64,000 nucleotides of DNA from an uncultured Rivularia sp. GTDB lineage: Bacteria > Cyanobacteriota > Cyanobacteriia > Cyanobacteriales > Nostocaceae. The stretch lies in the NCBI GenBank assembly GCA_963665115.1, contig OY762007.1, positions 1,152,001-1,216,000 of the forward strand, in the 5' to 3' direction. The position numbers were made by a program, and so were the translations under genes. Within the stretch, counting starts at the first letter, position 1; every line of letters begins with the position of its first letter. Below the pieces are notes generated by a model. It saw only the letters and a program-made list of their open reading frames with translations. It did no database searches and was not told the DNA's origin. This document shows, in pieces, positions 1-27,173 of the stretch.

Positions 1-1641
1 GTTGATATCGAACCTGGTAGCGCCCAAGACATCACAACACCTTTGAACGATACAACCTTTAACGTTAACGGGGTGAATGTCCGCAGGGTAACAGATCGTA
101 ACACACCAACTGTAATTAACGCGGTGTTCAACTTCCGTAACTTTTGGGATGGAAGGGCACAAAGCGTTTTTAACGGGGTGAATCCTTTTGGTTTGAGAGA
201 TAAAAGAGCTTTTGTTTTAAAGGCTCCGACTAAAAGAGAACTTAGAGATGTCAGAGTCAAAATTAACAATGCTTCTTTAGCTTCCCAAGCTGTGGGACCA
301 CCTTTAAGTGCTTTTGAGATTGCTGCGGAGAATGATGATGTAATTGCACCATTTAGAGTAAATCTTGACGAATCGGAAGAAAATATTGAAGTACTCACTG
401 AAGAAGGAGCGCTGATTGAAAAAGGTTCTGCTGTGGAAGGAGTATCTGCCGAAGAAAGCCTGGAATTAACCAAACAAAATAAACCAAATAGTATCAAGAT
501 TCAACCAATCGAACAACCGAAGCGGAAAAGACGTTTTCAGCGATTTGGTAGAAAGCTTGGTAAAAAACTGCTGGCCGTTACTCCTTTAAATAAACAAGTT
601 GTAGCTAGCGACGATAGCGTTTTAGGTTCATTAAGTAAATCTCCCACGGGTTTGAATAAATCCTACGAACAATTAGTAAAAGATACTTTTCGACGAAAGT
701 GGTGGGATTCTAAGCTCGCTATCAGAATTAATCCCAAAAACGGTAGACGCAGATTTATCCGTATACCCAAGAATCGACCATTGAAAAGCAACGAATATAC
801 TTTGATGGAGTATAACTTCGCATTGTTTTTCGGGTTAGCAGTGCAGGAATATGAATCAACTTTGATTTCCGATCAAACACCATTTGATGAATTTTTGAAT
901 GGTAATACAAGTGCTATGACTACAGAGCAAATCCAGGGATTCCAATTATTCCAACGAAATGGATGTATTGGCTGTCATGCTGGCACAGAATTAACTGCTG
1001 CTTCGGTTAGTAACGTTAACAGTAAAGGACGCATCGAACGCGGTATATTTCCTCCGAATCCCGCACAGGATACTGGCTTTTTCGCGATAGGAGTTAGACC
1101 GTCAGGAGAAGATGTTGGGCTGGCTGGTAAAGATGAATTTGATAATTCATTTTCGGAAGCAACCTTAGCTTTAGAAGGTAAATTTAAACGACTTCTAGGT
1201 GAAGAACCACCTTTTGTTCCCAATTCGCCACAAGATATAGTTGCAACTGGTGCATTTAAAACACCGGGGCTTCGTAACATAGAGTTAACTGCTCCATATT
1301 TTCATAATGGCGGACAATCGACCTTAGAGCAAGTGGTTGACTTTTACAAACGAGGTGGAAATTTTGGTGGATTGCGGGAGCTGAATTTGACTCAAGATGA
1401 CAAAGACAAATTAGTTGCATTTCTCAAAAGTCTTACCGACGAAAGAGTTCGCAATCAACAAGCACCTTTCGATCATCCACAGTTATTTGTTCCTTACGGA
1501 CATCCCAACGACGAGAATTCTGTAGTTGTGGATTCCGGTGCATCATCTAATGGCGTTCAACAAGCCCAAGATGATTTATTGGAAATACCTGCTGTGGGAA
1601 GAAATGGTGGTACTCCTTTAGCGGAGTTTCTCGCACCTTAA
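1..1641 (+). CDS. Cytochrome c peroxidase/MauG family protein, 5'-truncated by the window edge
   Basis: Frame is open from base 1. Motifs RNTPTVINAVFNFRNFWDGRA, CIGCH (heme c), AFKTPGLRNIELTAPYFHNGG and LVAFLKSLTDERV. Confidence 0.9.
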   Translation, partial: VDIEPGSAQDITTPLNDTTFNVNGVNVRRVTDRNTPTVINAVFNFRNFWDGRAQSVFNGVNPFGLRDKRAFVLKAPTKRELRDVRVKINNASLASQAVGPPLSAFEIAAENDDVIAPFRVNLDESEENIEVLTEEGALIEKGSAVEGVSAEESLELTKQNKPNSIKIQPIEQPKRKRRFQRFGRKLGKKLLAVTPLNKQVVASDDSVLGSLSKSPTGLNKSYEQLVKDTFRRKWWDSKLAIRINPKNGRRRFIRIPKNRPLKSNEYTLMEYNFALFFGLAVQEYESTLISDQTPFDEFLNGNTSAMTTEQIQGFQLFQRNGCIGCHAGTELTAASVSNVNSKGRIERGIFPPNPAQDTGFFAIGVRPSGEDVGLAGKDEFDNSFSEATLALEGKFKRLLGEEPPFVPNSPQDIVATGAFKTPGLRNIELTAPYFHNGGQSTLEQVVDFYKRGGNFGGLRELNLTQDDKDKLVAFLKSLTDERVRNQQAPFDHPQLFVPYGHPNDENSVVVDSGASSNGVQQAQDDLLEIPAVGRNGGTPLAEFLAP

Positions 1642-1765
1642 ATAGAAAAAGGTTAGAGGTCAAAGGTTAAAGGTTAAAGGTATTAAATTACCGAAAATTA
1701 ATCAAACGAACATATTTTAATCAAACTCTTAAAATGTGTTCTTTGAAAGCATAGATTAATTGATT

Positions 1766-1800
1766 GAAGAGACGGGGCTGTTGCTTCGTCTTTTTTTTTG
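1766..1800 (+). terminator. Probable intrinsic terminator
   Basis: Hairpin AAGAGACGGGGC-tgtt-GCTTCGTCTTTT followed by a T-run, downstream of the peroxidase gene. Confidence 0.7.
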
Positions 1801-1822
1801 ATTCTTTTCTGGCTTTAAAATT

Positions 1823-1965
1823 ACGGCGTTGCTGAATCCGGGTATGAATTCATTTTTTCCTTCATAGTGATGCCCCCTAAATCCCCCCATTTAGGGGGGA
1901 CTTTTGATTGTCTTATTCCCCCATAATTGGGGGTTAGGGGGCAATTCATACTAATCAGCAACCCC
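1823..1965. repeat. MITE/REP-like element with internal CCCCCTAAATCCCCC...GGGGGTTAGGGGGC palindromes
   Basis: Imperfect terminal inverted repeats (GGCGTTGCTGA / TCAGCAACCCC) and nested G/C hairpins. Confidence 0.6.
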
Positions 1966-2027
1966 AAAATTACCTATCTCTCTATGCGTCTAGTAAGGTT
2001 TTTAAAATCGGTAATTTTCGGAATTCC

Positions 2028-2056
2028 TGCATAATTAAAAAAACTTGTCCGGTATG
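2028..2056 (+). promoter_or_regulatory. Candidate bipartite promoter TGCATAA...CCGGTAT (variant)
   Basis: TGCATAA at 2028 with TA at +25. Shares AATTCCTGCATAA with the copy upstream of trpA. Confidence 0.55.
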
Positions 2057-2148
2057 AAATAACAGAAGCGGCGAAACACCGCGAACGAAATGCAGACCGA
2101 ACAAGGATTAAAAAAATGCTTACTTCAACTTTACTAGATATGTGTGAA

Positions 2149-3630
2149 ATGACCAACTTGCAACCTGGTAAAAAAATTACCATTCTAGGTGCAGGTATTG
2201 CGGGTTTGGTTGCAGCTTATGAATTAGAACGTTTGGGACATGAAGTTGAGATTATCGAAGGTAGTTCCCGTGTAGGTGGAAGGGTTTGGACTCATCGCTT
2301 TGGTAAGGATAACAACGCACCTTATGCAGAGTTGGGAGCAATGCGGATTCCTAGCAGCCATCACCATACATTACATTATGTAAATGAAATGGGATTGAGT
2401 GACAAACTTTGTAAATTTATGACTGTATTTGAAGAACAAAATGCCTTTATTAATTTGGAAGGTAAAATCTTCAAGATGAAGGATGCTCCTCGTATTTTGC
2501 AACAACGTTATCAAGGAATTTTTACAGATACTCGTTACAGCGAAACAACTCGTTTATTTGCTGCTTGGTTAAAAACTATTGTTGATACTATTTCTCCCGG
2601 CGATTTGCGCGAAGGTTTAGAAAATGACCTCAAATCTCATTTGATGGATGAATTAGAAAAATTGGATTTAGAACCTTATTTTTGCGAAGATAACGAGTCA
2701 ATCGATTTACAATCTTTTATTAAAGAAAATCCTGGCTTCCGCGCTCGTTGTAGCAAAGCATTAGATATGTTTTTTGAAGATATTGTTGTTGAAACCAGTC
2801 GCGATTTATTGCAGCTTCAAGGTGGAATGGAGCAAATTATCGATCGTTTATTAGAATCTATTAAATCTCCTATTAAGTGCAATCAGAAAGTAGTAGCTAT
2901 TAGAGTTAATCCCGAATTTACAGAAATTGACTATATAGAAAATGGCGAGAAATCCACCCGCCGTTGCGATTATGTATTGTGTACAATTCCTTTTTCTGTA
3001 ATGCGAAAGATGGAATTGGAAGGATTTGATGAAAGAAAATTTAATTCTATTCAAGATACATATTATTGTCCCGCGACAAAGGTTGCTTTCCACACCAAAG
3101 AAGCATTTTGGCAAAAGCAAGGTATTCGCGGTGGTGCTTCTTTTAGCGGTGAAGGTGTGCGTCAAACCTATTATCCTTCTGTTAAATTTACTCCTGAAAG
3201 CGGTAGCATCATGTTAGCTAGTTATACAATCGGTGATGATGCTGACAGAATGGGAAATATGCCGGAATCACAACGTCACGATTACGTTAAAGATGTTGTT
3301 GGTAAAGTTCACCCCGAATTGCAAGCAGAGAATATGGTTGTGGAAGCAGCTTCTATTGCTTGGGGTAATTACGAATGGAGCGCTGGCGGTTGCGCGGTAC
3401 ATTGGGAAGATGATGCTGCAAATACTTCTAATTATTTAGAAGCTAGTAGAAGACAACATAAATTGTTATTTGCTGGCGAACATTGTTCTAGATATCCTGC
3501 TTGGTTACAAGGTTCTATTGAGTCTGCTTTGGAAGCTGTTTACGATATTGTTTCTGATAAGAGAAAGAATCGTGTAGCTACAAGTTTTGTTAATAAAATA
3601 GAAGATGCTTACGTTTTACAAGCTGCTTAG
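2149..3630 (+). CDS. Flavin monoamine/L-amino-acid oxidase family (possible tryptophan oxidase, VioA/RebO/StaO-like)
   Basis: GAGIAGL dinucleotide fold, RVGGRVWT, AELGAMRIP and FAGEH...WLQGSIESA. The substrate is inferred only from the trp gene context. Start could be 2116. Confidence 0.85.
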   Translation: MTNLQPGKKITILGAGIAGLVAAYELERLGHEVEIIEGSSRVGGRVWTHRFGKDNNAPYAELGAMRIPSSHHHTLHYVNEMGLSDKLCKFMTVFEEQNAFINLEGKIFKMKDAPRILQQRYQGIFTDTRYSETTRLFAAWLKTIVDTISPGDLREGLENDLKSHLMDELEKLDLEPYFCEDNESIDLQSFIKENPGFRARCSKALDMFFEDIVVETSRDLLQLQGGMEQIIDRLLESIKSPIKCNQKVVAIRVNPEFTEIDYIENGEKSTRRCDYVLCTIPFSVMRKMELEGFDERKFNSIQDTYYCPATKVAFHTKEAFWQKQGIRGGASFSGEGVRQTYYPSVKFTPESGSIMLASYTIGDDADRMGNMPESQRHDYVKDVVGKVHPELQAENMVVEAASIAWGNYEWSAGGCAVHWEDDAANTSNYLEASRRQHKLLFAGEHCSRYPAWLQGSIESALEAVYDIVSDKRKNRVATSFVNKIEDAYVLQAA

Positions 3631-3817
3631 AATAATTCGTCAAACTATTATACTTCCAAGCTATTGATGATATTAATAAACCCGGTTATTTCAAATAGCC
3701 GGGTATTTACAGCAGATTTCATTTAAGTGAGGTACACATCCTTTCTAGAGGGAGTAGTGAGTAGGGAGTAGGGAATAGGGAAATGTACCTCATATACAGA
3801 GAGAATTATTCATATTT

Positions 3818-3846
3818 TGCATAAACCAAAAAAGCCTCCCCCTACA
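3818..3846 (+). promoter_or_regulatory. Candidate bipartite promoter TGCATAA-N16-CCTACA
   Basis: Matches the recurring motif and spacing, about 30 bp before the aroF ATG. Confidence 0.65.
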
Positions 3847-3876
3847 AATAATTATCAGATAAAAACAAGGAAAAAA

Positions 3877-4989
3877 ATGATTATTGTTACCCAAAGTGGA
3901 ACCCCTGAAGTTGAAATCGAGCGGATTATTGATGAATTGAGCGTTTACGACGGAACTGTTGAGAAAATTGTTGGTAAAGAGAAGGTTGTAATTGGTTTAG
4001 TTAGCGATACTTCTAATATTAATCTTGGTTATATTCAACAAATTAGTCCTTTCATTGAAGATGTTTTTCGAGTTGAACAACCTTTTAAGCGAGCTTCTTT
4101 AGAATACCGTAACGGCGAACATTCTGAAGTTGTTGTCCAAACTCCCAACGGTGCGATTACCTTCGGTAGAGCTTCGCTTAACGCCTTTGGTCAAAATCAT
4201 CCTTTGGTTGTTGTCGCTGGGCCTTGTTCGGTAGAGAATGAAGAAATGATTGTGGAGACTGCGAAAGTAGTTAAAGCTACTGGCGCTCAATTCCTCAGAG
4301 GTGGTGCTTACAAGCCTCGTAGCTCGCCTTATGCTTTCCAGGGACACGGTGAAAGCGCTTTACATTTATTGGCTAAGGCTAGAGAAGTTACTGGTTTGGG
4401 AATTATAACTGAAGTAATGGACACAGCAGACTTAGATAAAGTAGCGGAAATTGCGGATGTGGTGCAAATTGGCGCTAGGAATATGCAAAACTTCTCGCTG
4501 TTGAAGAAAGCTGGTGCTGCTGGTAAGCCGATTTTGCTCAAGCGCGGGATGTCTGCAACTATTGAAGAATGGTTGATGGCTGCTGAATATATCTTATCTA
4601 CTGGCAATCCTAACGTGATTTTGTGCGAGCGCGGAATTCGCAGTTTTGATAAGAAATACACTCGAAACGTGTTGGATTTATCGATTGTTCCAGTATTGCG
4701 GACTCTGACTCATTTACCGATTATGGTCGATCCCAGTCATGCAACTGGTTACTCAAAATTTGTGCCGACAATGGCTAAAGCTGCGATTGCTTCCGGTACC
4801 GATTCTTTGATGATTGAAGTTCACCCCAATCCTGCAAAAGCGCTTTCCGACGGACCACAATCTTTGACTCCAGAGAATTTTGTTGAGTTGATGCGAGAAA
4901 TTAAGCCTTTATCGGAATACTTTGGACGTGGTGATTCTAATTTAGTAAATTCAAGTTTTGTTGAAAGTGGAATTAAAGTTGGTGTTTGA
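3877..4989 (+). CDS. aroF: 3-deoxy-7-phosphoheptulonate (DAHP) synthase, class I-beta with N-terminal regulatory domain
   Basis: AGPCSVE, LRGGAYKPRSSPY, QIGARNMQNF, LCERGIR, DPSH and MIEVHPNP. ATG at 3877 follows AAGGA. Confidence 0.95.
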   Translation: MIIVTQSGTPEVEIERIIDELSVYDGTVEKIVGKEKVVIGLVSDTSNINLGYIQQISPFIEDVFRVEQPFKRASLEYRNGEHSEVVVQTPNGAITFGRASLNAFGQNHPLVVVAGPCSVENEEMIVETAKVVKATGAQFLRGGAYKPRSSPYAFQGHGESALHLLAKAREVTGLGIITEVMDTADLDKVAEIADVVQIGARNMQNFSLLKKAGAAGKPILLKRGMSATIEEWLMAAEYILSTGNPNVILCERGIRSFDKKYTRNVLDLSIVPVLRTLTHLPIMVDPSHATGYSKFVPTMAKAAIASGTDSLMIEVHPNPAKALSDGPQSLTPENFVELMREIKPLSEYFGRGDSNLVNSSFVESGIKVGV

Positions 4990-5080
4990 TGGATAAAAAT
5001 TAAAATCCTTACTACGAAAGATTAATTTAATAGTTTTATCAAACCTGGTTTTTTGTAAAAAATCGGGTTTTTTGATTCTT

Positions 5081-5415
5081 TGTAGGGTGCTGTGACGGTT
5101 ACGAAACCATTATAAAACGCAACTAAAATATTGATATTACCGTCACGCACCTTGTTGTTTTTATCATCCTTCTTGAGCTATAAAATATTAAATATAAATT
5201 CAAAACTTTGGAAGGTTACATTTTGATAATTAATTGGTGCGTGACGGTAATATTTAATTTATTTATTTATTGTAATTTAAGTTTTTTGTGACCGTCACAG
5301 CACCCTACAATAATATCTTTAATTTGTTGTTTTCTATTGGTTAATTGGTGCGTGAAGGCAATTTTAATTTTTAGTTGTATTTTATAATTTATCGTAACCA
5401 TCACACACCCTACAA
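5081..5415. repeat. Cluster of REP-like inverted repeats (GTAGGGTGC-GTGACGG...CCGTCAC-GCACCCTAC family)
   Basis: Three related stem-loop units; a similar unit lies at about 27571-27635. Confidence 0.7.
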
Positions 5416-5425
5416 TAATTAAAAT

Positions 5426-5983
5426 TTAAGATGAATGAAGCCATTTATAAAACAACTTAGTTAACCTGGGCATGACTACATAAGCTAATAATACAACTAC
5501 TAATCCAGTCATAATTGCTTGACGTAATAGAAAATGTAAAGGTGCTAAATAAGGACCGAGAAAATAACCTAAAGTAGATGCACAGATAAAAACCCCAATC
5601 CAGGTGACAAAGGCGGTTTTATATTTTGGTGGTGGAGCAGAAGCTGTGTTGGGAAGAGACACCAAAGCTTCCAATCCCGTTAATACTTGAACGCTTTCAG
5701 GTTTTTCAATTAAAGGTTGAGCGTTTTCTATCCACTGTTTTCGTTCGGATGACTTCATCCACTTGCAGAGATTTTTATAGTTATTAAAGCGTAAAATAAT
5801 TACATATTCTGTTCTACCAGGTTGCGGCCTCAGAATAGTTACTCCATGATGACCTTCAAATTGTCTTGCTGCTTCGGAAATTCCTGTCAGCCATTCTTCA
5901 TATCCCGATTCGCGACCTGGACGGATATAGTGGGAAATAACGGCTGTAACTTGTTGATTTGATTGATTTTCTTGTAAATCCAT
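5426..5983 (-). CDS. Antibiotic biosynthesis monooxygenase (ABM) domain protein with C-terminal membrane helices
   Basis: VTAVISHYIRPGRESGYEEW, WMKSSERKQW, then PPPKYK and two hydrophobic segments. Confidence 0.8.
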   Translation of the reverse strand: MDLQENQSNQQVTAVISHYIRPGRESGYEEWLTGISEAARQFEGHHGVTILRPQPGRTEYVIILRFNNYKNLCKWMKSSERKQWIENAQPLIEKPESVQVLTGLEALVSLPNTASAPPPKYKTAFVTWIGVFICASTLGYFLGPYLAPLHFLLRQAIMTGLVVVLLAYVVMPRLTKLFYKWLHSS

Positions 5984-6041
5984 AAAATAAAAATTTAGAA
6001 AGAACCATTATTTATATTGACTGATGGTGCGTGACAGTTAT

Positions 6042-6171
6042 TATAGCGATTTTCAGTTGAGTCCAATACACTCGGAACCTCACCCCGTCCTGCGGACACC
6101 CCTCTCCTTAATAAGGAGAGGGGAAGGGGGTGAGGTTAAGACGGTATTCCTCAAGCCTGAAAACCGCTATA
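6042..6171. repeat. MITE-like element
   Basis: Terminal inverted repeats TATAGCG.TTTTCAG / CTGAAAA.CGCTATA with an internal CCCCTCTCCTT..AAGGAGAGGGG hairpin. Confidence 0.65.
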
Positions 6172-6222
6172 TATTCACACACCCGCTTCGCTATTTTCAA
6201 TTACCCATTACCAATTGCAAAT

Positions 6223-6251
6223 TGCATAAACATAATTGACCAACCCCTACA
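6223..6251 (+). promoter_or_regulatory. Candidate bipartite promoter TGCATAA-N16-CCTACA
   Basis: Matches the motif and spacing, about 30 bp before the trpE ATG. Confidence 0.65.
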
Positions 6252-6283
6252 AGAAATTAAAGGACCTAATTGGAATTATTAAT

Positions 6284-8482
6284 ATGCAATTTGACACGAA
6301 TTCTTATACAACTCAAGGTGGTATATTTATATCCCGTTCCGTTACCAATACTTCTATCGATTCCGCTATTGATGAAGTTTTGATGCGTCTGGATTCTCAA
6401 CGGGGTGGTTTATTAGCTAGTAGTTATGAATATCCAGGAAGATATAAAAGATGGGCGATAGGCTTTGTCAATCCTCCTTTGGAAATATCTACAAGAGACA
6501 GAACTTTTAAAATTACGGCTCACAATGACCGAGGTTTGATTTTATTAGGTTATTTGGAAGAATTATTTTTAGATAAGTCTTATATAGAAGAGTTGGATAA
6601 GCAAGATAATTCTATTTCGGGTTCTATTCAACCGAGTAACCGTTTATTTTCAGAAGAAGAACGCAGCAGACAGCCATCTGTATTTAGCGTGATTCGAGAA
6701 ATTATCTCTGCATTTTTTAGTCCGTTGGATGAAAATTTAGGGCTTTACGGTGCTTTGGGTTACGATTTGGTGTTCCAATTTGAACAAATGCCCAAGCTGT
6801 TGGAAAGAGAAGATGACCAGAGGGATTTGGTTTTATATTTACCCGATGAGTTATTCGTCGTTGACTACCATTTACAGCAAGCATTTCGGATGCAGTACGA
6901 TTTTGTCACCAAAAACGGTAGCACTAGAGATTTACCTCGCAAAGGTGAAAAGATTGATTTCCGTGGCAAGCGTCTCAACGTGACTCAAGGTTCCGATCAT
7001 GCACCGGGAGAATACGAGCAACAAGTTACCAAGGCTTTAGATTATTTCCGACGTGGGGATTTATTTGAAGTTGTTCCTTCTCAATGCTTTTCTGAAACCT
7101 GCGAAAAATCTCCTACAGAATTATTCCGCACTCTGATGAAAATTAATCCCAGCCCTTATGGATTTATCTTTAATATGGGTGGGGAATATTTAGTTGGTGC
7201 ATCTCCAGAAATGTTTGTCCGAGTTGAAGGTAGACGTGTGGAAACCTGTCCCATCAGCGGCACAATTAGAAGGGGAGAAACTGCGATTGATGATGCGGTA
7301 CAAATTCAAAAATTGCTTAATTCACGCAAGGATGAATCAGAGCTTACTATGTGTACCGATGTCGATCGCAATGACAAGTCTAGAATTTGCGAACCCGGTT
7401 CAGTTAGAGTTATCGGCCGTCGTCAAATTGAAATGTACAGTCATCTTATCCACACAGTAGACCATGTAGAAGGTGTACTCAAGCCAGAAGCCGATGCTTT
7501 AGATGCATTTTTGACTCACTTATGGGCAGTTACCGTTACCGGAGCGCCCAAACGTTCGGCAATGCAGTTTTTAGAGCAAAACGAACGCAGCGCCAGACGT
7601 TGGTATGGTGGAGCGGTGGGAGGTTTTAATTTTAAAGGTAATTTGAATACAGGTTTGATTTTACGAACTATTCGACTCCAAGATTCAATTGCAGAAGTCA
7701 GAGTTGGTGCCACAGTTTTGTATGATTCCGATCCAGAAGCAGAAGCACAGGAAACTTTAACCAAAGGTGGTGCTTTATTCCAAGCATTGAATAGAGCCAG
7801 TCATCAAGAAGTTGCTTTACCAATAATTCCAGAATATGGCATCAAAGAAGCCAAGCCAGCAGCAGGTAAAAAAGTTTTACTAATAGATTACGAAGACTCA
7901 TTCGTTCATACCCTTGCTAACTATATTCGTCAAACAGGTGCAGCCGTCACCACATTACGATATGGTTTTCCCGAATCCGTATTTGACGAGCAAAAGCCAG
8001 ATTTAGTTGTATTGTCTCCCGGCCCTGGAAAGCCCAGCGACTTTGGTTTAGATAAGGCGATCGCCGCTTGCAAGAAACGTGAAATCCCTATATTCGGCGT
8101 ATGTTTGGGATTGCAGGGAATAGTAGAAGCCCACGGTGGAAAATTAGGAGTTTTAGATTATCCCCAACACGGTAAAACATCTTTAGTAAATGTAGTTGAT
8201 AAGGATTCCGTCGCTTTCAAAGATTTACCAGAAAGCTTTGAAGTAGGTAGATATCATTCCTTATATGCATTGCAAGATAGTTTACCCGACGAACTAAAAA
8301 TTACAGCCATATCCGCAGACGGAATAGTAATGGGAATAGAACACAAAACCTTACCAATAGCCGCAGTACAGTTTCATCCCGAATCCATCATGACATTAGT
8401 TGGAGGAGCAGGGCTGATGATTATTACTAACGTTGTACGTGAATTTACCTGTTCCGCTAAGGGAGTGGTTTTGGCTTCGTGA
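6284..8482 (+). CDS. trpE: Anthranilate synthase, fused component I + II (TrpEG)
   Basis: Chorismate-binding domain (GDLFEVVPS, ASPEMFVR, PISGT, VTGAPK) fused to a glutamine amidotransferase (SPGPG, GVCLG, QFHPES). Confidence 0.95.
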   Translation: MQFDTNSYTTQGGIFISRSVTNTSIDSAIDEVLMRLDSQRGGLLASSYEYPGRYKRWAIGFVNPPLEISTRDRTFKITAHNDRGLILLGYLEELFLDKSYIEELDKQDNSISGSIQPSNRLFSEEERSRQPSVFSVIREIISAFFSPLDENLGLYGALGYDLVFQFEQMPKLLEREDDQRDLVLYLPDELFVVDYHLQQAFRMQYDFVTKNGSTRDLPRKGEKIDFRGKRLNVTQGSDHAPGEYEQQVTKALDYFRRGDLFEVVPSQCFSETCEKSPTELFRTLMKINPSPYGFIFNMGGEYLVGASPEMFVRVEGRRVETCPISGTIRRGETAIDDAVQIQKLLNSRKDESELTMCTDVDRNDKSRICEPGSVRVIGRRQIEMYSHLIHTVDHVEGVLKPEADALDAFLTHLWAVTVTGAPKRSAMQFLEQNERSARRWYGGAVGGFNFKGNLNTGLILRTIRLQDSIAEVRVGATVLYDSDPEAEAQETLTKGGALFQALNRASHQEVALPIIPEYGIKEAKPAAGKKVLLIDYEDSFVHTLANYIRQTGAAVTTLRYGFPESVFDEQKPDLVVLSPGPGKPSDFGLDKAIAACKKREIPIFGVCLGLQGIVEAHGGKLGVLDYPQHGKTSLVNVVDKDSVAFKDLPESFEVGRYHSLYALQDSLPDELKITAISADGIVMGIEHKTLPIAAVQFHPESIMTLVGGAGLMIITNVVREFTCSAKGVVLAS

Positions 8483-8499
8483 AATTGAGAGGGAAGAAA

Positions 8500-8625
8500 T
8501 CAAAAACGCCCGCAGGCTATAAGCCTGGGGCTACACCTACAAAGCCTGCCTTCGCAGGCTAGAAGATTAATAGCCTGCGAAGGCAGGCTTCGTAAATGTA
8601 GCGATACCCTTCTAGGGTATTGCGA
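8500..8625. repeat. REP-like palindromic element
   Basis: Inverted pair AAGCCTGCCTTCGCAGGCT...AGCCTGCGAAGGCAGGCTT. Confidence 0.7.
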
Positions 8626-8652
8626 CAAAATTACGATACTCCCGAAAATTCC

Positions 8653-8681
8653 TGCATAAACTTAAAATCCCTTCCCCTAAA
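8653..8681 (+). promoter_or_regulatory. Candidate bipartite promoter TGCATAA-N16-CCTAAA
   Basis: Matches the motif and spacing, about 30 bp before trpA. Confidence 0.6.
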
Positions 8682-8713
8682 AAGAGAATAACAATCTAAA
8701 ATCTAAAATTGAA

Positions 8714-9530
8714 ATGAAATCAATATCCGAAAAATTCAAACATTTACGCGCCGAAAAGCAATGTGCTTTAATTCCATTTATCACCGCTGGCGACCCTGAT
8801 TTAGAAACTACCACAGAAGCTTTAGGAATATTAGAAGCAAACGGTGCTGATTTTATAGAGTTAGGAGTTCCTTATTCCGATCCGTTAGCCGATGGGCCCG
8901 GTGATTCAAGCAGCAGCAACCCGCGCTCTGGAAAGAGCAACTCGTTTAGATGATGTTTTACGAATCGCGCAGTCGGTAACTCGTAAAATTGAAGCTCCAA
9001 TTATTTTATTTACTTATTACAACCCCATTCTTAACTTAGGGATTGACCAATTTCTCAAAAGAATTGCCGAAGCTGGAATCAAAGGATTAGTCGTACCCGA
9101 TTTACCTTTAGAAGAAGCAGACAATTTAATAAACACTGCCGAAACAGCCGGAATCGAAGTTATTTTACTAGTTACTCCCAACACACCCGACGACAGAATC
9201 AAGGCGATCGCCCAAAAGTCTCGCGGATTTATTTATCTTGTCAGCGTCACCGGAGTAACAGGTGTTCGTTCCCAATTGCAGACGCGAGTAAAAGATGTAC
9301 TGCAAAACATCAGAAAATTTACAGATAAACCCATTGCCGTTGGTTTTGGTATATCCAGCCCAGAGCAAGCACTTCAAGTAAAAGAATGGGGAGCAGATGC
9401 AGTAATCGTCGGCAGCGCATTTGTAAAACGTTTAGGAGAATCCACACCGTATAAAGGATTGCGAGCCATTTCAGAATTTTGCGCCGAGCTTAAAGCAGTT
9501 ACCAGTGAGCAGTTAACAGTGAGCAGTTAA
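8714..9530 (+). CDS. trpA: Tryptophan synthase alpha chain, +1 frameshift at about 8897 (probable sequencing error)
   Basis: [11 protein letters not shown] and [19 protein letters not shown] join if one C is removed from [16 protein letters not shown] and VGFGIS follow. Confidence 0.93.
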
Positions 9531-9626
9531 CAGTTATAAATTTTCTACCGCATCTACCCCCTCTTCCCCCTCTTCCCCCTCTACCCCCTCTTCCCCTCTC
9601 AATCAATAAACTAATAAGGAAAAATC

Positions 9627-10841
9627 ATGCTACTAACAACTCAAAAAACAACACCAGACGCTCTCGGCAGATTTGGAAAATTCGGTGGAAAATATGTACC
9701 GGAAACTTTGATGCCTGCTTTAACTGAATTAGAAACGGCTTATCAAAAGTACCGCAATGACGCGGATTTTCAAAGTGAATTACAAGGATTACTGCGGGAT
9801 TATGTTGGACGCTCTACTCCTTTATATTTTGCCGAAAGACTTACTCAACATTATGCTCGTCCTGACGGTACGGGAGCGCAGATTTACTTAAAGCGAGAAG
9901 ACTTAAATCATACTGGCGCTCATAAAATTAATAATGCTTTAGGACAAGTTTTACTTGCTAAGCGCATGGGCAAACAAAGGATTATTGCGGAAACTGGAGC
10001 CGGACAACACGGTGTTGCAACTGCTACTGTCTGCGCTCGATTCGGTTTGGAATGCATCATTTATATGGGTGTCCACGATATGGAACGACAATCCCTGAAT
10101 GTGTTCCGAATGCGGTTGATGGGTGCGGAAGTTCGTCCGGTGGCAGCGGGAACTGGTACTTTAAAGGATGCGACTTCCCAAGCAATTCGAGATTGGGTAA
10201 CTAATGTTGAAACTACTCATTACATTTTAGGTTCCGTTGCCGGGCCACATCCTTATCCGATGATTGTGCGCGACTTTCAAGCAATAATTGGAAAAGAAAC
10301 TCGTTCTCAAGCTGAAGAAAAATGGGGTGGATTACCCGATATTTTACTGGCTTGTGTTGGTGGTGGTTCTAATGCAATGGGATTATTTCATGAATTTGTG
10401 AGCGACGTTGAGGTACGGTTAATTGGTGTTGAAGCGGCTGGTGAAGGTATTGATACTGATAAACACGCCGCTACTTTGACACTTGGTAAAATAGGTGTTC
10501 TGCATGGAGCAATGAGTTTTGTTTTACAGGATGGAGATGGACAGATTATCGAGCCTTACTCTGTTAGCGCTGGTTTAGATTATCCCGGTGTCGGGCCGGA
10601 ACACAGCTATTTCAAAGAAATAAAACGTGCTGAATATTACAGCGTCACCGATAAACAGGCTTTAGCCGCATTTCAACTGATATCGCAATTAGAAGGAATA
10701 ATTCCCGCTTTAGAAACATCTCATGCAATTGCTTATTTAGAAACACTTTGTCCCCAATTGAGCGGTAATCCTCGAATTGTACTTAACTGTTCTGGCAGGG
10801 GAGATAAAGATGTGCAGACAGTTGTGAAATTATTACAGTGA
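9627..10841 (+). CDS. trpB: Tryptophan synthase beta chain
   Basis: [29 protein letters not shown] and SGRGDKD. Confidence 0.98.
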
Positions 10842-10897
10842 GTAGTTAATAGTTAGGAGTAGTGTAGGTTAAAGGTTAAAGGTGAGCAATTATCTTC

Positions 10898-10962
10898 CCA
10901 TGCCCAATGCCCCATGCCCAATTACCAATTACCAATTACCAATTACCAATTACCAATTACCA
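10898..10962. repeat. STRR heptamer tract (TGCCCAA/TTACCAA)
   Basis: Tandem 7-mers; they create a spurious N-terminal extension in the ORF track. Confidence 0.85.
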
Positions 10963-10972
10963 GTTTTCAAAA

Positions 10973-12560
10973 ATGATTAAAAGCTTTAAATTCTTCTTTC
11001 TTCTTTCTTCTTGCTTCTGCTTTCTCTTAACTACTCCTGTCAAAGCAGAATCTGGGATGAGCCAGGTAACGAATGTCAATCAATTAAGCGATGTTCAACC
11101 AACTGATTGGGCGTTTCAAGCTTTGCAATCTTTGGTTGAAAGGTATGGTTGTATTGCTGGATATCCCAACGGCACTTTTCGCGGCAATCGGGCTATGACT
11201 CGTTATGAATTCGCTGCTGGGCTTAATGCTTGTTTGGATAGAGTTAATGAATTGATTGCAACTGCTACTACTGATGTGGTTAGTAGGCAAGATTTAGAAG
11301 TTTTGCAGAGGTTACAGGAAAGTTTTGCTGCTGAATTAGCAACTTTACGCGGTAGGGTAGATGCTTTAGAAGTGCGTAGTGCGGAATTAGAAGCCAATCA
11401 GTTTTCTACAACTACTAAGTTGAGGGGACAAGCAATTTTTGCTGTTAACGGTGGTGGTTTTGATGGGAACAGTATTATTGATGCTGCTGGGAGAACAGTT
11501 GCTAATGATGACCCCAATACCACAATGATATTTAGGGCTGGATTCGATTTAGATACCAGCTTTAACAAAACTGACTTATTAAAAATGCGTTTGGAAGCCG
11601 GAAGCGGTATATTAGGGCCAAACGGCCAACCCGACGGTGGTAGAGATAATGCCGCAGGTTTCTTGGAACCATCTTTCGGAAGTGCTTTGGATTATTCGAT
11701 TAATCCCCCTACAGACAGGGATATCGAGTTATCGAGACTTTATTACACCTTTAAACCCAGTCAAAATTTAGCAGTTACCATCGGGCCCGAGTATGCGTGC
11801 TTCTGATTTTTTAGACTTTAATAGTTATGCCAAACTCAGTTTCCGCGACTTTAGTACTCAAGCCTTTGTTAATAACTATGTAATGTTCCCCATCGAGTTT
11901 CCCAGTGCTGGTGCATTAATTGATTGGAAACCCAATAAAGGAGCTTTTTCCGTCAGGGCTGCTTATACCGCAGCAGATGCAGCAAATCCCAGCAACCAAG
12001 GCGGAATTATTGGCAATGCGCCTTTTATTAACGTACTCTATGACACCCCCAATCCTGGTTCACCTCCCGGAGTTGGAGGGGAGCGGGGTTTATTTGGGGA
12101 TAATTATCAAGGTGTAGTGGAAGTCGAATTTTCCCCTTCAAGGGATTTAGCTTTACGTTTGCAGTATAGCGGTGGAGAAGTATTTGATAACCATTTTGAA
12201 GCAATCGGAGCCAATTTAGAATTAACTCTTGCTAAGAAATTGGGTATATTTGGACGCTATGGTTACAGTAATTATGACAATACTCGGTTCGGCGATATCA
12301 GCCCTAATTATTGGATGGCTGGAGTTGCATTTAGAGACTTATTTACTAGAGGAGCTTTAGCTGGTGTAGCAGTCGGACAGCCTTTTATAGCAAACGAAAT
12401 CGGAAATTCAACCCAGACAAATTACGAAGCATTTTACAACTATCCAATTAGCCGCAACGTGCAAATTACACCCACACTGCAAATAATTGAAAACGCCGCC
12501 AATCAAGATGCTAACGGAACGATTTATACCGGAACGCTGCGGACTACTTTTTCGTTTTAG
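10973..12560 (+). CDS. Cyanobacterial SLH-domain outer-membrane porin (OprB/iron-uptake porin family), +1 frameshift at about 11788
   Basis: Signal peptide, SDVQPTDWAFQALQSLVERYGC, QFSTTTKL and C-terminal GTLRTTFSF. The two ORFs join by deleting one C in GGGCCCGAG. Confidence 0.9.
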
Positions 12561-12589
12561 AGAGGGGGGAGAGGGGGAGACATTATTAA

Positions 12590-12802
12590 AGTAGTGAGTA
12601 GTGAGTAGTGAGTAGTGAGTAATGAGTAATAAGTAGTGAGTAGTGAGTAGTGAGTAATGAGTAACAAGTAGTGAGTAGTGAGTAGTGAGTAATGAGTAAC
12701 AAGTAGTGAGTAGTGAGTAGTGAGTAGTGAGTAATGAGTAATAAGTAGTGAGTAGTGAGTAATGAGTAATAAGTAGTGAGTAGTGAGTAGTGAGTAATAA
12801 GT
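12590..12802. repeat. Long STRR heptamer tract (AGTAGTG/AGTAATG/AGTAATA), about 30 units
   Basis: Directly visible tandem array between the porin and trpD. Confidence 0.95.
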
Positions 12803-12924
12803 AAAAATAGACGGGCAGAAGTACCGACATTTATGAAAATAATAAAAAAGTGATTTACTTGCTACTCTCTACTCCCTACTCCCTACTCAATACTATTCCC
12901 AATGCCCAATTACCAAATATAAAA

Positions 12925-13989
12925 ATGATTCAAACTTTAACAAAAAATTGGTCTACATTTTTGCAACAGTTACTTTCGGGTGAATCTCTGGAAGTTTCTC
13001 AAGCTGCGGATTTAATGCAGGGTTGGCTAACTCAAAGTATTCCGGATGTGTTGTCTGGTGCGATTATTACGGCTATTCAAGCGAAAGGTGTTTCTGTTGA
13101 AGAGTTGTTGGGAATGGTGGAGGTTTTACATTCTCAATCGGTAAAACCGGATAGTGAAATTATTATCGGGGATTTACCTTTTATTGATACTTGCGGAACT
13201 GGTGGAGATGGAGCTTCAACCTTTAATATTTCTACAGCGGTTGCTTTTGTCACGGCTGCTTGTGGTGTGAAGGTTGCTAAACATGGTAATCGTTCTTCTT
13301 CGGGTAAAACTGGTTCTGCTGATGTGTTGGAAGCTTTGGGTGTTAATCTTAAAGCCGATACCCAAAAAGCTACAGCTGCTTTAGAATCTGTGGGAATAAC
13401 CTTTTTATTTGCACACAATTGGCATCCAGCATTAAAGGCGATCGCACCATTACGAAAAACTCTCAAAGTCCGCACTGTATTTAATTTACTCGGTCCTTTA
13501 CTCAATCCTCTCAAACCTACGGGACAAGTTATTGGCGTTAATAGTCCGGTTTTGATCGAAACCTTTGCTAAAGTACTGCATAACTTGGGAACTCGTCGCG
13601 GTGTTGTACTCCACGGTAGGGAAAAATTAGACGAAGCAGGCTTGGGAGATAAAACAGATTTAGCAGTTTTATCCAACGGAGAAATAGAGATAGTGGAATT
13701 AGAACCCGAAGAATTGGGTATTAGTGCAGCACCTATTAGCAGCATCAAAGGTGGGGAAGTTGCAGAAAATGCACATATCCTAAAAGCTGTTTTGCAAGGT
13801 AAAGGAACTCAGCAGCAGCAAGATGTAGTAGCTTTAAATGCTGCTTTGGCATTGTATGTGGGTGAAGCTGTTGCAGATAAAGGTGATCATTCGCAGACTT
13901 TTGCCGATGCTGTGGTATTAGCGAAAGATGCGTTGAATAGTGGGGAGCCTTGGCGAAAATTGGAAGAATTAGCGGGGTTTTTGAAGTAG
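12925..13989 (+). CDS. trpD: Anthranilate phosphoribosyltransferase
   Basis: [30 protein letters not shown] and [13 protein letters not shown]. Confidence 0.97.
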
Positions 13990-14220
13990 TTTATTGAATA
14001 ATAAATCCCGAAATGATGTAGAGACGGCGTGCACAGTGCAACGTCTCTATTTTATTGTTTTTTAATGCCAATCAAAATGTTTTTCTAAATTTATTTTAAT
14101 ATACTATTTTGCTTGCTTTGCCTGTAAATAAAGTCCAATTGGCAAGACAATTAAATCAAAATATGAAATTCTTCTATTAAATATAAATTTTAGTTTTGCA
14201 GCAAAATTTTAAGTTAAGAC

Positions 14221-14248
14221 TGCATAATTGAACCAAAATTCACCTATA
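14221..14248 (+). promoter_or_regulatory. Candidate bipartite promoter TGCATAA-N15-CCTATA
   Basis: Motif match, separated from the GMC oxidase start by an inserted MITE. Confidence 0.6.
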
Positions 14249-14268
14249 GAATTAATAGGACAAACTAT

Positions 14269-14471
14269 TAGACATCTCCGGAAATCAATAAGAACCCCTC
14301 TCCATGAACGCGTTCACGCCTTCGGCGTGCGGCTCAGCGTTTTCTCGTAGAGTACCTCTCCCCCACAGGGAGAGAGGCTTAATTTTCCCCCTTCCCTCGT
14401 AGGGAAGGGGGTTAGGGGGTTAGGTTTTACCGAAAAGTTGAAACCATACAAATGTTTTCCGGAGATGTCTA
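14269..14471. mobile_element. MITE with perfect 16-bp terminal inverted repeats and nested palindromes
   Basis: TAGACATCTCCGGAAA (14269-14284) and TTTCCGGAGATGTCTA (14456-14471). Confidence 0.75.
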
Positions 14472-14511
14472 TTCAATCAAAACAATTAATAAGCAGATCG
14501 GGAAATCAAAT

Positions 14512-16071
14512 ATGTCACCTAAATTCAAGCGTCGTCAATTCCTTCAAGCTTCGTTAGCAGCTACTGCAAGTATAGGTGCTTACAACCTTCGTACTTTTGC
14601 CGAGCGCTCAGAAGAACGTGTAGAAGCTGTAGTTATCGGTAGCGGTTTTGGTGGAGCAGTAGCTTCCTTAAGGCTTGCTCAAGCAGGAATTGAAACAGTT
14701 GTACTGGAGCGCGGACGACGATGGGAAATCACTGACGCGGGTGATACTTTTTCTACCTATGAAAAACCTGATGGTCGCTCTACTTGGTTGAGTCCAACTA
14801 CAATTATTTCCGGAGAAACTCCCATTGATGTGTATACAGGAGTTCTGGATATTAAGGTAGGTGATGGGGTTAGTGCCTTACGGGGAGCGGGTGTAGGTGG
14901 TGGCTCCCTTGTATATAATGCTGTTACCTATCAGCCAACTGAAGAACTTTTCTACAGAGCTTTTCCACGGAACATAAATTACGAAGAACTCGATAGAGTT
15001 TATTATCCAAGGGTGCGTTCGATTCTTAAACCGTCCCTCATACCCGATGATATCCTTGAAAGTCCATTTTATTTAACCAGTCGTATAGTTTTAGAGCAAG
15101 CAGCAAAGGCGAATTTAACAGCTCGCAAAGTTGATATGAATGTTGATTGGGATATTGTTCGTCAGGAAATTGCCGGTACAAAAGTTCGGAGTGCGATCGA
15201 TGGTCAAGTATACTATGGCATCAATAGTGGAGCAAAACAAAGTTTAGACCGTAATTACCTTTCGATGGCAGAGGCTACTGGTTTCGTTGAGATACGACCT
15301 TTGCATATGGTAATGGAGATAGAGGAAGTAAATCGCGGGCGTTTCCGTATAATAAGCAATCAAATCGACGAGCAAGGAAATGTAGTTGCACAGAAAAATA
15401 TTGTTTGTAAATATCTATTTTTAGCAGCTGGTTCTATTGGAACTACAGAACTTTTATTACGTGCTAAAAATAATCGTAAATTGCGCCGTCTCAACAACCA
15501 ATTAGGAAAACGATGGGGAACTAATGGAGATACGGTTGGTGCTGTCCTTACTTCAATGCAAACCAATCCCACAGAGGGGGGACCTGGGGCTACAGTAATT
15601 GAAGACTTCGACAACCCGATAACTCCTTTGGTATTTGAACAAGTTCCTTTTCCTGGTTTACCGGAAGGCGTTTATAGTGGTGTAAGTCTTGCTATGACAA
15701 CGCCGGAGGGTTCTCTAATTTATAATCCTTCTACTAAAACAGCCGATTTAGTTTGGCCTGAGAATTCAGCCAACAATCAAAAAATTAAACAGGCTAATCT
15801 TGATTTTTTCCAACGACTAAACGAAGCTAACGGTACAACTTTAGCTCAACAACCAGATGATAGTCTTACCGCTCATCCCCTTGGTGGTGCAACAATCGGC
15901 GCTGTATGCAGTCCTTACGGTAGAGTTCGCGGTTATCGTAATTTGTTTGTTGTTGATGGTGCTTTTATCCCTGGCTCTACAGCCTGCGCCAACCCTTCTC
16001 TTACCATTGCGGCTTTAGCGGAGCGTAATATGGATAGATTTCTTAATAGATACCGCAAACGCGATTGTTAA
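14512..16071 (+). CDS. GMC oxidoreductase, cholesterol-oxidase-like, Tat-exported
   Basis: Tat motif KRRQFL, VIGSGFGG, GVGGGSLVY, LAAGSIGTTELLLRA, AHPLGG and ANPSLTIAALAER. Confidence 0.88.
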   Translation: MSPKFKRRQFLQASLAATASIGAYNLRTFAERSEERVEAVVIGSGFGGAVASLRLAQAGIETVVLERGRRWEITDAGDTFSTYEKPDGRSTWLSPTTIISGETPIDVYTGVLDIKVGDGVSALRGAGVGGGSLVYNAVTYQPTEELFYRAFPRNINYEELDRVYYPRVRSILKPSLIPDDILESPFYLTSRIVLEQAAKANLTARKVDMNVDWDIVRQEIAGTKVRSAIDGQVYYGINSGAKQSLDRNYLSMAEATGFVEIRPLHMVMEIEEVNRGRFRIISNQIDEQGNVVAQKNIVCKYLFLAAGSIGTTELLLRAKNNRKLRRLNNQLGKRWGTNGDTVGAVLTSMQTNPTEGGPGATVIEDFDNPITPLVFEQVPFPGLPEGVYSGVSLAMTTPEGSLIYNPSTKTADLVWPENSANNQKIKQANLDFFQRLNEANGTTLAQQPDDSLTAHPLGGATIGAVCSPYGRVRGYRNLFVVDGAFIPGSTACANPSLTIAALAERNMDRFLNRYRKRDC

Positions 16072-24666: not shown

Positions 24667-25566
24667 ATGATTTACATAATGAAAGTATATTTACTCCATC
24701 ATATTAAAATGAATTCCAAATTATCTCGACGTATATTTATATCACAAATGCTTTTATCAATAGCTGCTTGTGCGACAGAAGAAACAATATTTACTCGACG
24801 TTTAGTTATAGGTGTACTCAGTTATGGACAAGGAAAACAAACTGTAGAAAGATTAAGCGAATTTCGTGAATATTTAAGCGATAATCTCAAGACGATTATT
24901 GAATTGGAACCCGCTTTTAATGAAAGAATCGCCATCGAACGCATCAAACGTAAATCTTGGTCATTGGTTTTTGCTACTCCTGGTTTAGCTGCTATGGGTA
25001 TTGCTTATCATCAATATTGGAGTATGTTTCCTTTAAAATTAGATAGCAACTCTCGTTCTATAATTGTTGTCAATCAAGGTAGTTCTTTAAAGAAAATACA
25101 AGATTTACAAGGGAAAAAACTGGCTTTAGGACAACAGGGTTCGGCAACTGGTTATTATTTTCCACTTTTCAATCTTTACGGTTTGACATTAGCCTCGATC
25201 CGATTTTCTCCTACACCACAATTATCTTTAGAATTATTATCGCAAGGTGAAGTTGATGCTGCTGCTCTTTCTTTAGAAGAGTTTAATTTTTATAAATCAA
25301 AAATAGATTCTGCACAGTTTCAGATTTTATTTACAGATACTCATACTGCACCTTCCGGCTCTTTGATATGTAGTCCAATGGTAGAAAGAAAACTCGCCGA
25401 TGCGATTCGCAGTAACTTGAATAAAGCTCCTGATTCCTTGATTCAACAAGCCGAATATGTCCCAAAATCATCACCCCCCGATTATAAATATATGATCAGT
25501 GTGGTTAAAAGAGTTAATGCTATTACTGAAAATATTAACTCCAAACCCGTGCGTTTATTTAATTGA
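24667..25566 (+). CDS. PhnD/SsuA-type substrate-binding protein (probable lipoprotein; start may be 24709)
   Basis: SRRIF...IAAC, DLQGKKLALGQQGSATGYYFP and GEVDAAA. Confidence 0.78.
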   Translation: MIYIMKVYLLHHIKMNSKLSRRIFISQMLLSIAACATEETIFTRRLVIGVLSYGQGKQTVERLSEFREYLSDNLKTIIELEPAFNERIAIERIKRKSWSLVFATPGLAAMGIAYHQYWSMFPLKLDSNSRSIIVVNQGSSLKKIQDLQGKKLALGQQGSATGYYFPLFNLYGLTLASIRFSPTPQLSLELLSQGEVDAAALSLEEFNFYKSKIDSAQFQILFTDTHTAPSGSLICSPMVERKLADAIRSNLNKAPDSLIQQAEYVPKSSPPDYKYMISVVKRVNAITENINSKPVRLFN

Positions 25567-27173
25567 ATTGTAATATAAATGCTATCATGTCACGCTTACC
25601 TAAACCAATCTTTACTCCGGGACCTAACTTATACCAAATACCCGGTAAAAGTGGATATTTATTAATATATGTACCGTTAGAACTTCCCATATCTTGAATA
25701 TAGTAATCTTCTCCATCAAATTTAATTTGAGCATGGTTTCGAGAAACTACTTCCGAATGAGGTAAATTTGCAACGTCTATATTTTGACTATTATCGTTAT
25801 TTCCTTTACCGATATTAATTAATGAAGGAACTTCCGGTAAATCAAGTACTTGATTAGTTAAAGTATGAATTAATTGAGGAACGGGTGCTTGTAAATTTGT
25901 CGGTGAATCTGTTGCTGGAATAAATGTTTTTTGTGCTTGTAATCCGCTAATAATTGGTGCGGGTAGTGTTTGTTTGGGAGTTATGAGAATGTTGAAGATG
26001 AAAAATGCAATTACAGAATAAACAGCAGCACTGAAAAATACAACTTTGATTCCACCTAAGCCAATTGCTAAACCTCCGAGTATGGGGCCCGAGTGCTTGC
26101 CCTAACGATTGCACGCTGGCATTCACAGCCATAAATCCAGCACGGGAATCTTGAGCGGATAATCCTGCTAATAATGCTTGAGATGATGGTAAAGCGAATG
26201 CTAATGCTACACCAAATAAAGCGCTAGGAATTAATAACAGCCAGGGGTTAGTTATTAACGGAATCATTATTAATGCTACCGCACTGATGGGAAAAGAAGT
26301 TTTAATTAAAGTTATTTCCGAAAACCTTTGAATTAACCATCCCAATTGAGAAGCACTTATCGCAACAGCCAAGGACATTACACATAATATAATTCCATTC
26401 ATAAACCCAGAAGCACCAAGATTAACCCCTGCAAAAATTGGTATGTAGGTTATAAAAGCCCCAAACTGAATCATAAATATGGTACCCACCGCAAATAATA
26501 ATCCCATCACGGAACGGTTATTAACGCTATTCCAAGTACCTTTGAGATAAACTTTTAAACTTTCTTGTTTTACATTAGCAGGTCTTTTTGGTAATTTTAA
26601 AACCATGATTACCAGCATTACCAAAGGAAAAGCTAAAACCGAAAGTAGAAATGGGTACGACCAATTTAGACTTCCTAAAGCTCCACCCACCAACGGGTAA
26701 ATTGCCGAAGATATGCCGATTACAGCAGCATTGATGGACATTGCCGCACCCAACATTCTACCTTGGTAGAGCATGGCAATCATCGTTAGCGATAAAGCAT
26801 CTAGAGGAGCAGCACCCAATCCTTGTAAAAATCGCAATCCGAGAACAGAAGTGAAAGTACCCGCAAAAGAAATCGAAGCTCCCGCGATCGCAAACAATAT
26901 TAAAGCCGGAATCAACACTTTGCGAATTCCAATCCGATCTGCCAAAACCCCTAAAATAGGAGTTGCAAGACCGATGGGTAACACAAAAAGCGTCATCACC
27001 AGTTCAATTTCCCTGGTAGAGACATTAAATACTTCCGTCAGACTCGGTAATATTGGAGCAACCGTTTGTCCTCCCATAATAGATATCAAAGTTACACCAA
27101 TAATGATGTAAAGATTTTTATCCTGAGCGATATTTGGTGTATTTTTCTGCTCTGCTTGAACTGATGTATTCAC
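25559..27173 (-). CDS. MFS transporter fused to a C-terminal FHA domain, +1 frameshift at about 26087
   Basis: MFS motif GVLADRIGIRKV. After removing one C in GGGCCCC the frame reads GPILGG...INIGK...VSRNHAQI...IQDMGSSNGTYIN...FILQFN*. Confidence 0.85.

Follow-up and report, generated by a model that had tools for sequence, protein, structure and literature searches.

A probable split indolocarbazole pathway with its own tryptophan-supply genes in an uncultured Rivularia

What does a set of tryptophan genes serve when it stands beside a flavin amino-acid oxidase in a cyanobacterial chromosome? The question is raised by a 64,000-nucleotide stretch of DNA (the window; positions refer to it unless a genome position is given) from an uncultured Rivularia sp. 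(assembly GCA_963665115.1, contig OY762007.1), denoted here G000:C1:1,152,001-1,216,000 and lying on an 8.69-Mb single contig of an assembly that is 99.93% complete. A first-pass annotation of the interval 1-16071 had listed aroF, trpEG, trpA, trpB and trpD together with the oxidase, a haem peroxidase, an ABM protein, a porin and a secreted GMC oxidase, and had reported no trpC, trpF or scy genes in it. Open reading frame (ORF) listing and family scans of the interval recovered every listed gene and none of the three absent kinds. The annotation had further proposed that the set feeds an oxidised-tryptophan or bisindole product whose core genes may lie left of the window. We conclude that the window probably holds the entry and precursor-supply half of a split indolocarbazole pathway, the rest of which would lie 252–290 kb away.

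The oxidase and its remote partner genes

The oxidase gene (2116..3630, plus strand) was assigned to the RebO/StaO/Tjp1 type of flavin L-amino-acid oxidases by a PF01593 match, identity and synteny. Its 120 best-scoring relatives are at least 61% identical and, where named, nearly all cyanobacterial; the best non-cyanobacterial matches among plasmid records (41–43%) are from Pseudonocardia, Streptomyces clavuligerus and Nocardiopsis. Over its full length, the protein shares 42.3% (locus L058) and 41.3% (locus L059) identity with oxidases encoded directly upstream of RebD/StaD in plasmid-borne actinobacterial clusters. In the two actinobacterial regions examined, the oxidase match directly precedes a VioB/ferritin-like synthase. 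One region additionally carries a RebC-like monooxygenase, a cytochrome P450 and tryptophan halogenases, the other a P450, methyltransferases and deoxysugar genes, and we take these to be the rebeccamycin and staurosporine layouts. Tjp1 of the tjipanazole cluster is listed as 43% and 42% identical to RebO and StaO, respectively (PMC7497240, Table S1). The catalytic-type residues G25, R77, K322, Y370 and W463 are invariant in all 54 aligned oxidases, and the window protein scores 55 bits against the VioA model, which has a cut-off of 600. We infer from the 41–42% identity and the synteny that the enzyme is of the RebO/StaO type, in line with the bisindole-type flavin enzyme first suggested, and is predicted to convert L-tryptophan to indole-3-pyruvate imine, the committed step.

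The candidate partners of the oxidase were found in a remote module at G000 1.431–1.447 Mb, 252–290 kb to the right of the window genes, with 288 kb separating oxidase and synthase. A PF12902 search located a RebD/StaD-like synthase of the ~1100-aa type (G000 1,443,739–1,447,054) that is 39.5–39.6% identical to the synthases of L058 and L059; no solved structure matched it. Downstream of the synthase are a glutathione S-transferase (GST) gene, a HEAT protein and an aspartoacylase on the other strand, a major facilitator superfamily (MFS) transporter and a StaP-like P450 (G000 1,436,104–1,437,381), then a second P450, an O-methyltransferase, a HabB/styrene-oxide-isomerase-like membrane protein and a third P450. 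The module itself contains no oxidase. The best solved match of the StaP-like P450 is 2z3t (E 2e-109; next-best solved match 8e-85), presumably StaP itself, and the protein is 42% and 39% identical to the cluster P450s of L058 and L059. No glycosyltransferase or sugar genes were found within the module and no azoreductase near either module. Additionally, the whole G000 genome gave no match to the tryptophan halogenase family (PF04820), a gene type that the first-pass annotation had suggested looking for.

Thus, the indole-cluster interpretation of that annotation stood in substance, with a bisindole synthase module in the same genome, but not in layout. The 40 kb left of the window, where the core genes had been placed, contain no scy, halogenase or synthase gene (ORFs judged by sequence, three of them scanned against Pfam) and instead carry ABC transporters, LRR and AAA proteins, a thiE-like gene and regulatory genes. 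A scytonemin reading of the window was rejected, as neither the interval nor these 40 kb hold a scy gene and the full scy set lies at 6.53 Mb. A second PF12902 match (L057; G000 5,088,783–5,089,859) was rejected as a synthase, as it is a ferritin-like protein of 359 aa that stands alone, away from any bisindole genes.

The distribution of the two halves was examined in a family sample of 120 genomes, with cut-offs of 1e-40 and 1e-60 for the synthase/oxidase searches, and in a genus sample of 27 genomes including G000 (the congeners). In the family, 30 genomes carry the synthase and 27 the oxidase; all 27 are among the 30, and in 22 of them the oxidase lies within 5 kb of the synthase. Among the congeners, the synthase occurs in 21, the StaP-like P450 in 22 (90–97% identity) and the window-type oxidase in 24, while 19 carry a RebC-like gene, whose product matches solved RebC with E 3e-175. 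Every one of the 21 synthase-bearing congeners has the window-type oxidase, eight of them with no other oxidase copy, and the three congeners that have this oxidase without a synthase are 68–83% complete. In two congeners, G067 (100% complete) and G137 (99%), all four of these genes (oxidase, synthase, StaP and RebC) and the extra trpB are jointly absent, and in G132 (99%) an oxidase fragment with a stop is all that remains.

Gene order also joins the halves. We compared 20 loci of the window oxidase type, four of which have too little downstream DNA for the aroF count; at 15 of the 16 informative loci, aroF lies no more than 10 kb downstream of the oxidase, so the clustering of oxidase and trp genes is not due to chance. 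In G127, synthase, RebC and GST genes lie 2.3 kb from an oxidase-aroF-trpEG-trpA-trpB-porin-trpD run, with a transporter trio, two P450s and StaP further along, all in ~37 kb. In G144, 55 kb hold the oxidase, the trp genes, the GMC gene, the trio, the P450s, StaP, MFS, aspartoacylase, GST, RebC and the synthase. The G000 order equals that of G144 with a 252-kb cut between the MFS-FHA gene (window 27,173) and the last P450. StaP lies directly 3' of trpD in G142, and in G055, G072, G094 and G005 trpA-trpB-trpD run directly into oxidase-synthase. Oxidase and synthase are 46 to ~740 kb apart in the other well-assembled congeners, and splitting is therefore common in the genus. The dN/dS values for oxidase, trpEG, trpB, synthase and StaP are 0.04–0.16.

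The trio families are also found beside the synthase cluster in further genera of the Nostocales (synteny; L080-L088, L094, L095, L097). In the window they comprise two tandem Tll0287-like/HAMP membrane proteins (22477-23370 and 23441-24331, minus strand; family scan and synteny), a phosphonate-binding-family periplasmic protein (24667..25566, plus strand; PF12974 and synteny) and an MFS transporter with a C-terminal FHA-like part (25559..27173, minus strand), which has a frame break near 26090. This MFS-FHA gene adjoins P450s and StaP in G127, G144, G123, G140 and G111. The trio at 22.5–27.2 kb does belong to the cluster, which thus extends past the interval first described, and in G000 the cluster breaks off at the MFS-FHA gene at 27,173.

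Three related HEAT/formylglycine-generating-enzyme-like genes, recognised by sequence, come after the MFS gene (27791-33119), where congeners carry the P450-StaP module. In the remote module, cas6-like and RAMP/Cas10-like genes, also recognised by sequence, begin ~150 bp upstream of the synthase (L054:11256-20000 and L056:1-3108; G000 1.447–1.459 Mb), the position that the oxidase takes in other genera. A second aromatic-metabolite cluster lies 22 kb from the synthase (G000:C1:1,469,476-1,480,914; L056, L012), with aroF, an aromatic ammonia-lyase in two pieces, an acyl-CoA ligase, a ScyA-related TPP enzyme, FabH-like and Coq4-like genes and prephenate dehydrogenase.

Besides the window gene, the only oxidase of this family in G000 is a copy at 8.539 Mb that is 71–72% identical to it. 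The second one (L007:8937-14950; G000 8.539–8.545 Mb) has a P450 and SAM methyltransferases as neighbours, an arrangement conserved among congeners, its type occurs in 15 of the 27 genus genomes, and it could feed a different indole product. Elsewhere in the family, G026, G115, G071 and G095 (loci L088, L080, L081 and L087) have three to six RebO-type oxidases, several of them in tandem and away from the synthase.

The tryptophan genes

All of the supply genes are on the plus strand. They are the DAHP synthase gene aroF (3877..4989, ORF open from 3817; NF009933, 632 bits), one of three copies in G000; the fused anthranilate synthase gene trpEG (6236..8482; TIGR01815, 1155 bits against a cut-off of 739); trpA (8714..9530); trpB (9627..10841; TIGR00263), placed in a pathway-linked paralogue group by copy count and tree; and the anthranilate phosphoribosyltransferase gene trpD (12925..13989, ORF open from 12850; TIGR01245). 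The spacers within the set (12590-12800, 10920-10960 and 9555-9600) are taken up by short tandem repeats with a 7-base unit, which produce spurious ORFs such as 12408-12830.

The first-pass annotation had treated this set as an extra copy, and a second one indeed exists: trpA, trpB, trpD and the trpEG fusion each occur twice in G000, and the second set lies inside a complete scyA-F/ebo cluster at 6.51–6.54 Mb (L004, L005). The annotation's premise that the housekeeping trp genes are scattered did not hold here, as G000 yielded no trpA, trpB or trpD standing alone. trpC has one copy in the scytonemin cluster and one that stands alone, and trpF stands alone. Redundant trp operons were reportedly described in heterocystous cyanobacteria by Xie and colleagues in 2003. 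The window-type trpB (at least 91% identity) occurs in 13 of the 27 congeners, always beside a second copy. A trpB type at 82–84% is the sole copy in 10 congeners, and in the two that were checked, G067 and G137, it belongs to an ebo-linked trp set (L142, L143). As this ebo-linked set holds the only trpB of G067 and G137, it would have to serve housekeeping there.

A TrpB tree was built from 35 rows, hand-picked from 15 searched genomes and the synteny loci; it omits the broken second copies of G000 and G143 and one fragment. The window clade (support 100/99) is sister to the G115 TrpB encoded near the synthase cluster of that genome (96/93), and the enclosing group (94/95) consists of the synthase-operon copies of G005, G055, G072 and G094 plus one G080 copy. 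The ebo-linked and stand-alone copies fall outside this group. From this grouping, and from trpA-trpB-trpD adjoining oxidase-synthase in G005, G055, G072 and G094, we read the window trp set as a pathway-linked booster. In G000 it may also serve protein synthesis.

Two genes of the interval, trpA and the porin, appear broken, each by one inserted base in a G/C run (8894 and 11786), which the first-pass annotation did not report. Breaks of the same kind occur in the second trpA (at the identical position), the second trpB and the synthase. The assembly was checked against short-read contigs from four runs, all of one study. The base at 8894 is absent in all four, that at 11786 is absent from three runs fully and from part of the fourth, and the extra base in the synthase is absent in three of the four. 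A pseudogene reading of trpA, the porin and rebD was rejected, the breaks being 1–2 extra bases in G/C runs that are mostly absent from the short-read contigs. Because of this G/C-run location, the shared place in both trpA copies and the short-read contigs, the frameshifts in the three genes are likely assembly errors, and the genes are read as intact. Insertions of 1–2 bases in G/C runs split many G000 genes (for instance at window 8894, 11786 and near 26090), and apparent pseudogenes in this assembly need read checks.

Neighbouring genes and rival explanations

The remaining genes of the interval vary between loci. The peroxidase is an exported di-haem CCP/MauG-like protein, whose 726 aa include a leader and two CxxCH motifs; its gene starts 540 bp left of the window, whose edge cuts it so that only the 3' part is seen (1..1641, plus strand). 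Of 18 informative loci, nine have it upstream of the oxidase. The GMC oxidoreductase (14452..16071, plus strand) has a twin-arginine-like leader and, as its best solved match, cholesterol oxidase (E 4e-85), and it follows trpD in four of the seven congener loci that show post-trpD DNA. The ABM-domain membrane protein (5426..5983, minus strand; PF03992) is absent between aroF and trpEG in L013, L024, L027 and L077 and inverted in L074. None of the three is present in the comparison set of 18 synthase-cluster loci from other genera. Thus, although they had been counted as cluster members, the peroxidase and GMC oxidase are variable neighbours and likely not pathway enzymes, and the ABM gene is a variable insert and likely a passenger. 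A role of the peroxidase as an H2O2-removing helper is possible but unsupported. The SLH/OprB porin (10973..12560, plus strand), one of at least 15 porin paralogues in G000, is a long-standing passenger of the window trp set. Just left of the window (L002:13532-17251), two secreted-looking proteins of 522 aa (no Pfam match) and 682 aa (HEAT repeats) are encoded, and these are kept in several congeners. A promoter and terminator scan of the region gave counts at or below chance, with 15 terminator-like hairpins against 13.9 expected, and thus offers a weak hint at best.

Could the window trp genes be mainly housekeeping genes and the oxidase a mere neighbour, given that the other trpA/trpB/trpD set sits in a stress-induced scytonemin cluster? 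There are only two copies of each of these genes, one of them within scyA-F/ebo, and the stand-alone trpC and trpF complete the route. However, ten congeners manage with the 82–84% trpB type as their sole copy, ebo-linked in G067 and G137, whereas all 13 congeners with the window type have a second copy, and in the tree the window type falls with synthase-linked ones. We regard this explanation as unlikely, although a shared primary-supply role of the set in G000 is possible. Alternatively, the indole-3-pyruvate formed by the oxidase might go elsewhere: into indole-3-acetate, into scytonemin, or into nitrogen scavenging in which the peroxidase disposes of H2O2. The synthase would then be served by the second oxidase or be decaying. 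Such a use would fit the second oxidase itself, the family genomes with three to six copies of which several lie away from the synthase, the missing RebC and the peroxidase in half of the informative loci. It is made very unlikely by the window-type oxidase being the sole copy in 8 of the 21 synthase-bearing congeners and adjoining the synthase in G127, by the scytonemin cluster having its own ScyB, and by the oxidase having no leader peptide in its sequence while the neighbouring peroxidase has one. It is barely plausible that the entire interval 1-16071, with peroxidase, ABM and GMC genes, forms a self-contained cluster for a new oxidised indole with no synthase. Every gene but the ABM gene is on one strand and L013 has the same order from peroxidase through GMC, but for each of these three genes there are many congener loci without it, the 18 loci of other genera have none of them, the GMC enzyme is of the cholesterol-oxidase type, and the stretch between peroxidase and oxidase holds terminator-like hairpins, though the region has about as many of these as chance predicts.

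Several observations weigh against a split, Trp-boosted pathway. The family and genus samples overlap and their genomes are kin, so the counts are non-independent and descriptive only. The synthase scores 744 and 151 bits against the VioB model, below its cut-off of 1250, and one short-read run (X3) retains the extra base in this gene. No match to RebC/StaC was found in G000, which could be early decay, as 19 of 27 genus genomes have RebC. The second oxidase could feed the synthase too; a quick oxidase tree does not split the two oxidases by partner or show which clade is ancestral to the synthase link. The 94/95 TrpB branch misses the starred threshold of the tool. The window-type trpB is missing from five synthase-bearing congeners that are at least 95% complete (G111, G122, G125, G130 and G143), and the extra trp set is therefore dispensable. 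Lastly, dN/dS values of 0.07–0.19 for the peroxidase and GMC genes indicate that purifying selection does not single out the pathway genes.

Predicted product and related clusters

In the proposed split pathway, AroF, TrpEG, TrpD, TrpA and TrpB would raise tryptophan output, with TrpF and TrpC borrowed from elsewhere in the genome. The oxidase, judged by family and synteny, would convert L-tryptophan to indole-3-pyruvate imine; by homology, chromopyrrolic acid would arise when the RebD/StaD-like synthase joins two imines, and ring closure to the indolocarbazole would fall to the StaP-like P450. RebC/StaC are unneeded for ring formation, and without them the P450 is reported to give K252c, 7-hydroxy-K252c (the main product) and arcyriaflavin A (PMC11350588). 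As no RebC/StaC and no halogenase were found in G000, a non-halogenated product from a K252c/7-hydroxy-K252c/arcyriaflavin A mixture is predicted. Tailoring could follow by the two further P450s, the O-methyltransferase, the GST and the HabB-like membrane protein, and export by MFS proteins would be the weakest step. For the tjipanazole cluster, the GST, methyltransferase, HabB-like protein and azoreductase are expected, as an expectation only, to act in pyrrole-ring removal (PMC7497240). Our best guess for the end product is a hydroxylated, O-methylated, non-halogenated indolocarbazole. G139, too, is without RebC and carries an O-methyltransferase and a HabB-like gene after StaP, which suggests, from these two genomes only, that the RebC-less form is a real variant rather than one decayed copy.

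More tentatively, an indolocarbazole pathway that is strongly conserved in most members of the genus and survives cutting into movable modules might have a regular role (light screening, signalling or defence) and yield an undescribed alkaloid. The RebC-less O-methyltransferase form of G000 and G139 could lead to a new hydroxy/methoxy or ring-rearranged scaffold, and the cluster family might be a candidate calothrixin-type route. An origin of calothrixin from indolo[2,3-a]carbazole has been proposed.

Indolocarbazoles are scaffolds for kinase and topoisomerase inhibitors, and the pathway occurs in a quarter of the family sample and in 21 of 27 congeners. The analysis names the oxidase without which the synthase module would be an orphan, and it gives a small set of genes from which the pathway could be reconstituted; neighbourhood-based mining would misread G000, taking one half for a trp operon and the other for a cluster without an entry enzyme. 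A literature search, with most subscription journals outside its coverage, returned nothing on this cluster from Rivularia or Calothrix or on the genes for calothrixin, and the tjipanazole (tjp) cluster was the sole cyanobacterial one with a proposed pathway that it found. Four Chlorogloeopsis genomes have each been assigned one indole/indolocarbazole cluster by mining tools (PMC11392904), 56 cyanobacterial indole clusters have been counted (bioRxiv 10.64898/2026.09.06.749771), and PMC12842986 is also among the work in print on the subject. Thus, cyanobacterial indolocarbazole clusters are already known, and what is new here is the split, Trp-supplied, RebC-less form.

With the violacein operon (vioABCDE), G000 shares the chemistry of a flavin tryptophan oxidase and a VioB-family synthase, but its enzymes are under the VioA and VioB cut-offs and a StaP-like P450 is present. 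The scytonemin cluster follows the same logic of a fused trpEG and trpA, trpB and trpD beside an indole pathway; in contrast, the window has no scy or ebo gene, a flavin oxidase in place of ScyB and a TrpB in a different clade. Rebeccamycin (rebO-D-C-P) and staurosporine (staO-D-P-C) share with G000 the oxidase, synthase and ring-closing P450 at 39–42% identity to L058 and L059, whereas G000 is without RebC/StaC or in-module sugar genes, is in two pieces and has its own Trp-supply genes. The tjp cluster of Fischerella ambigua 108b (PMC7497240) has counterparts in G000, by family only, of the oxidase Tjp1 (in the window), the synthase Tjp2, the GST Tjp3, the methyltransferase Tjp4, the HabB-like Tjp5 and the StaP-like P450 Tjp9. 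Compared with tjp, G000 lacks the tryptophan halogenase (Tjp10), a RebC/StaC-like gene and a nearby azoreductase, but it has two extra P450s, and its oxidase stands 288 kb from the synthase, tied to aroF and the trp genes.

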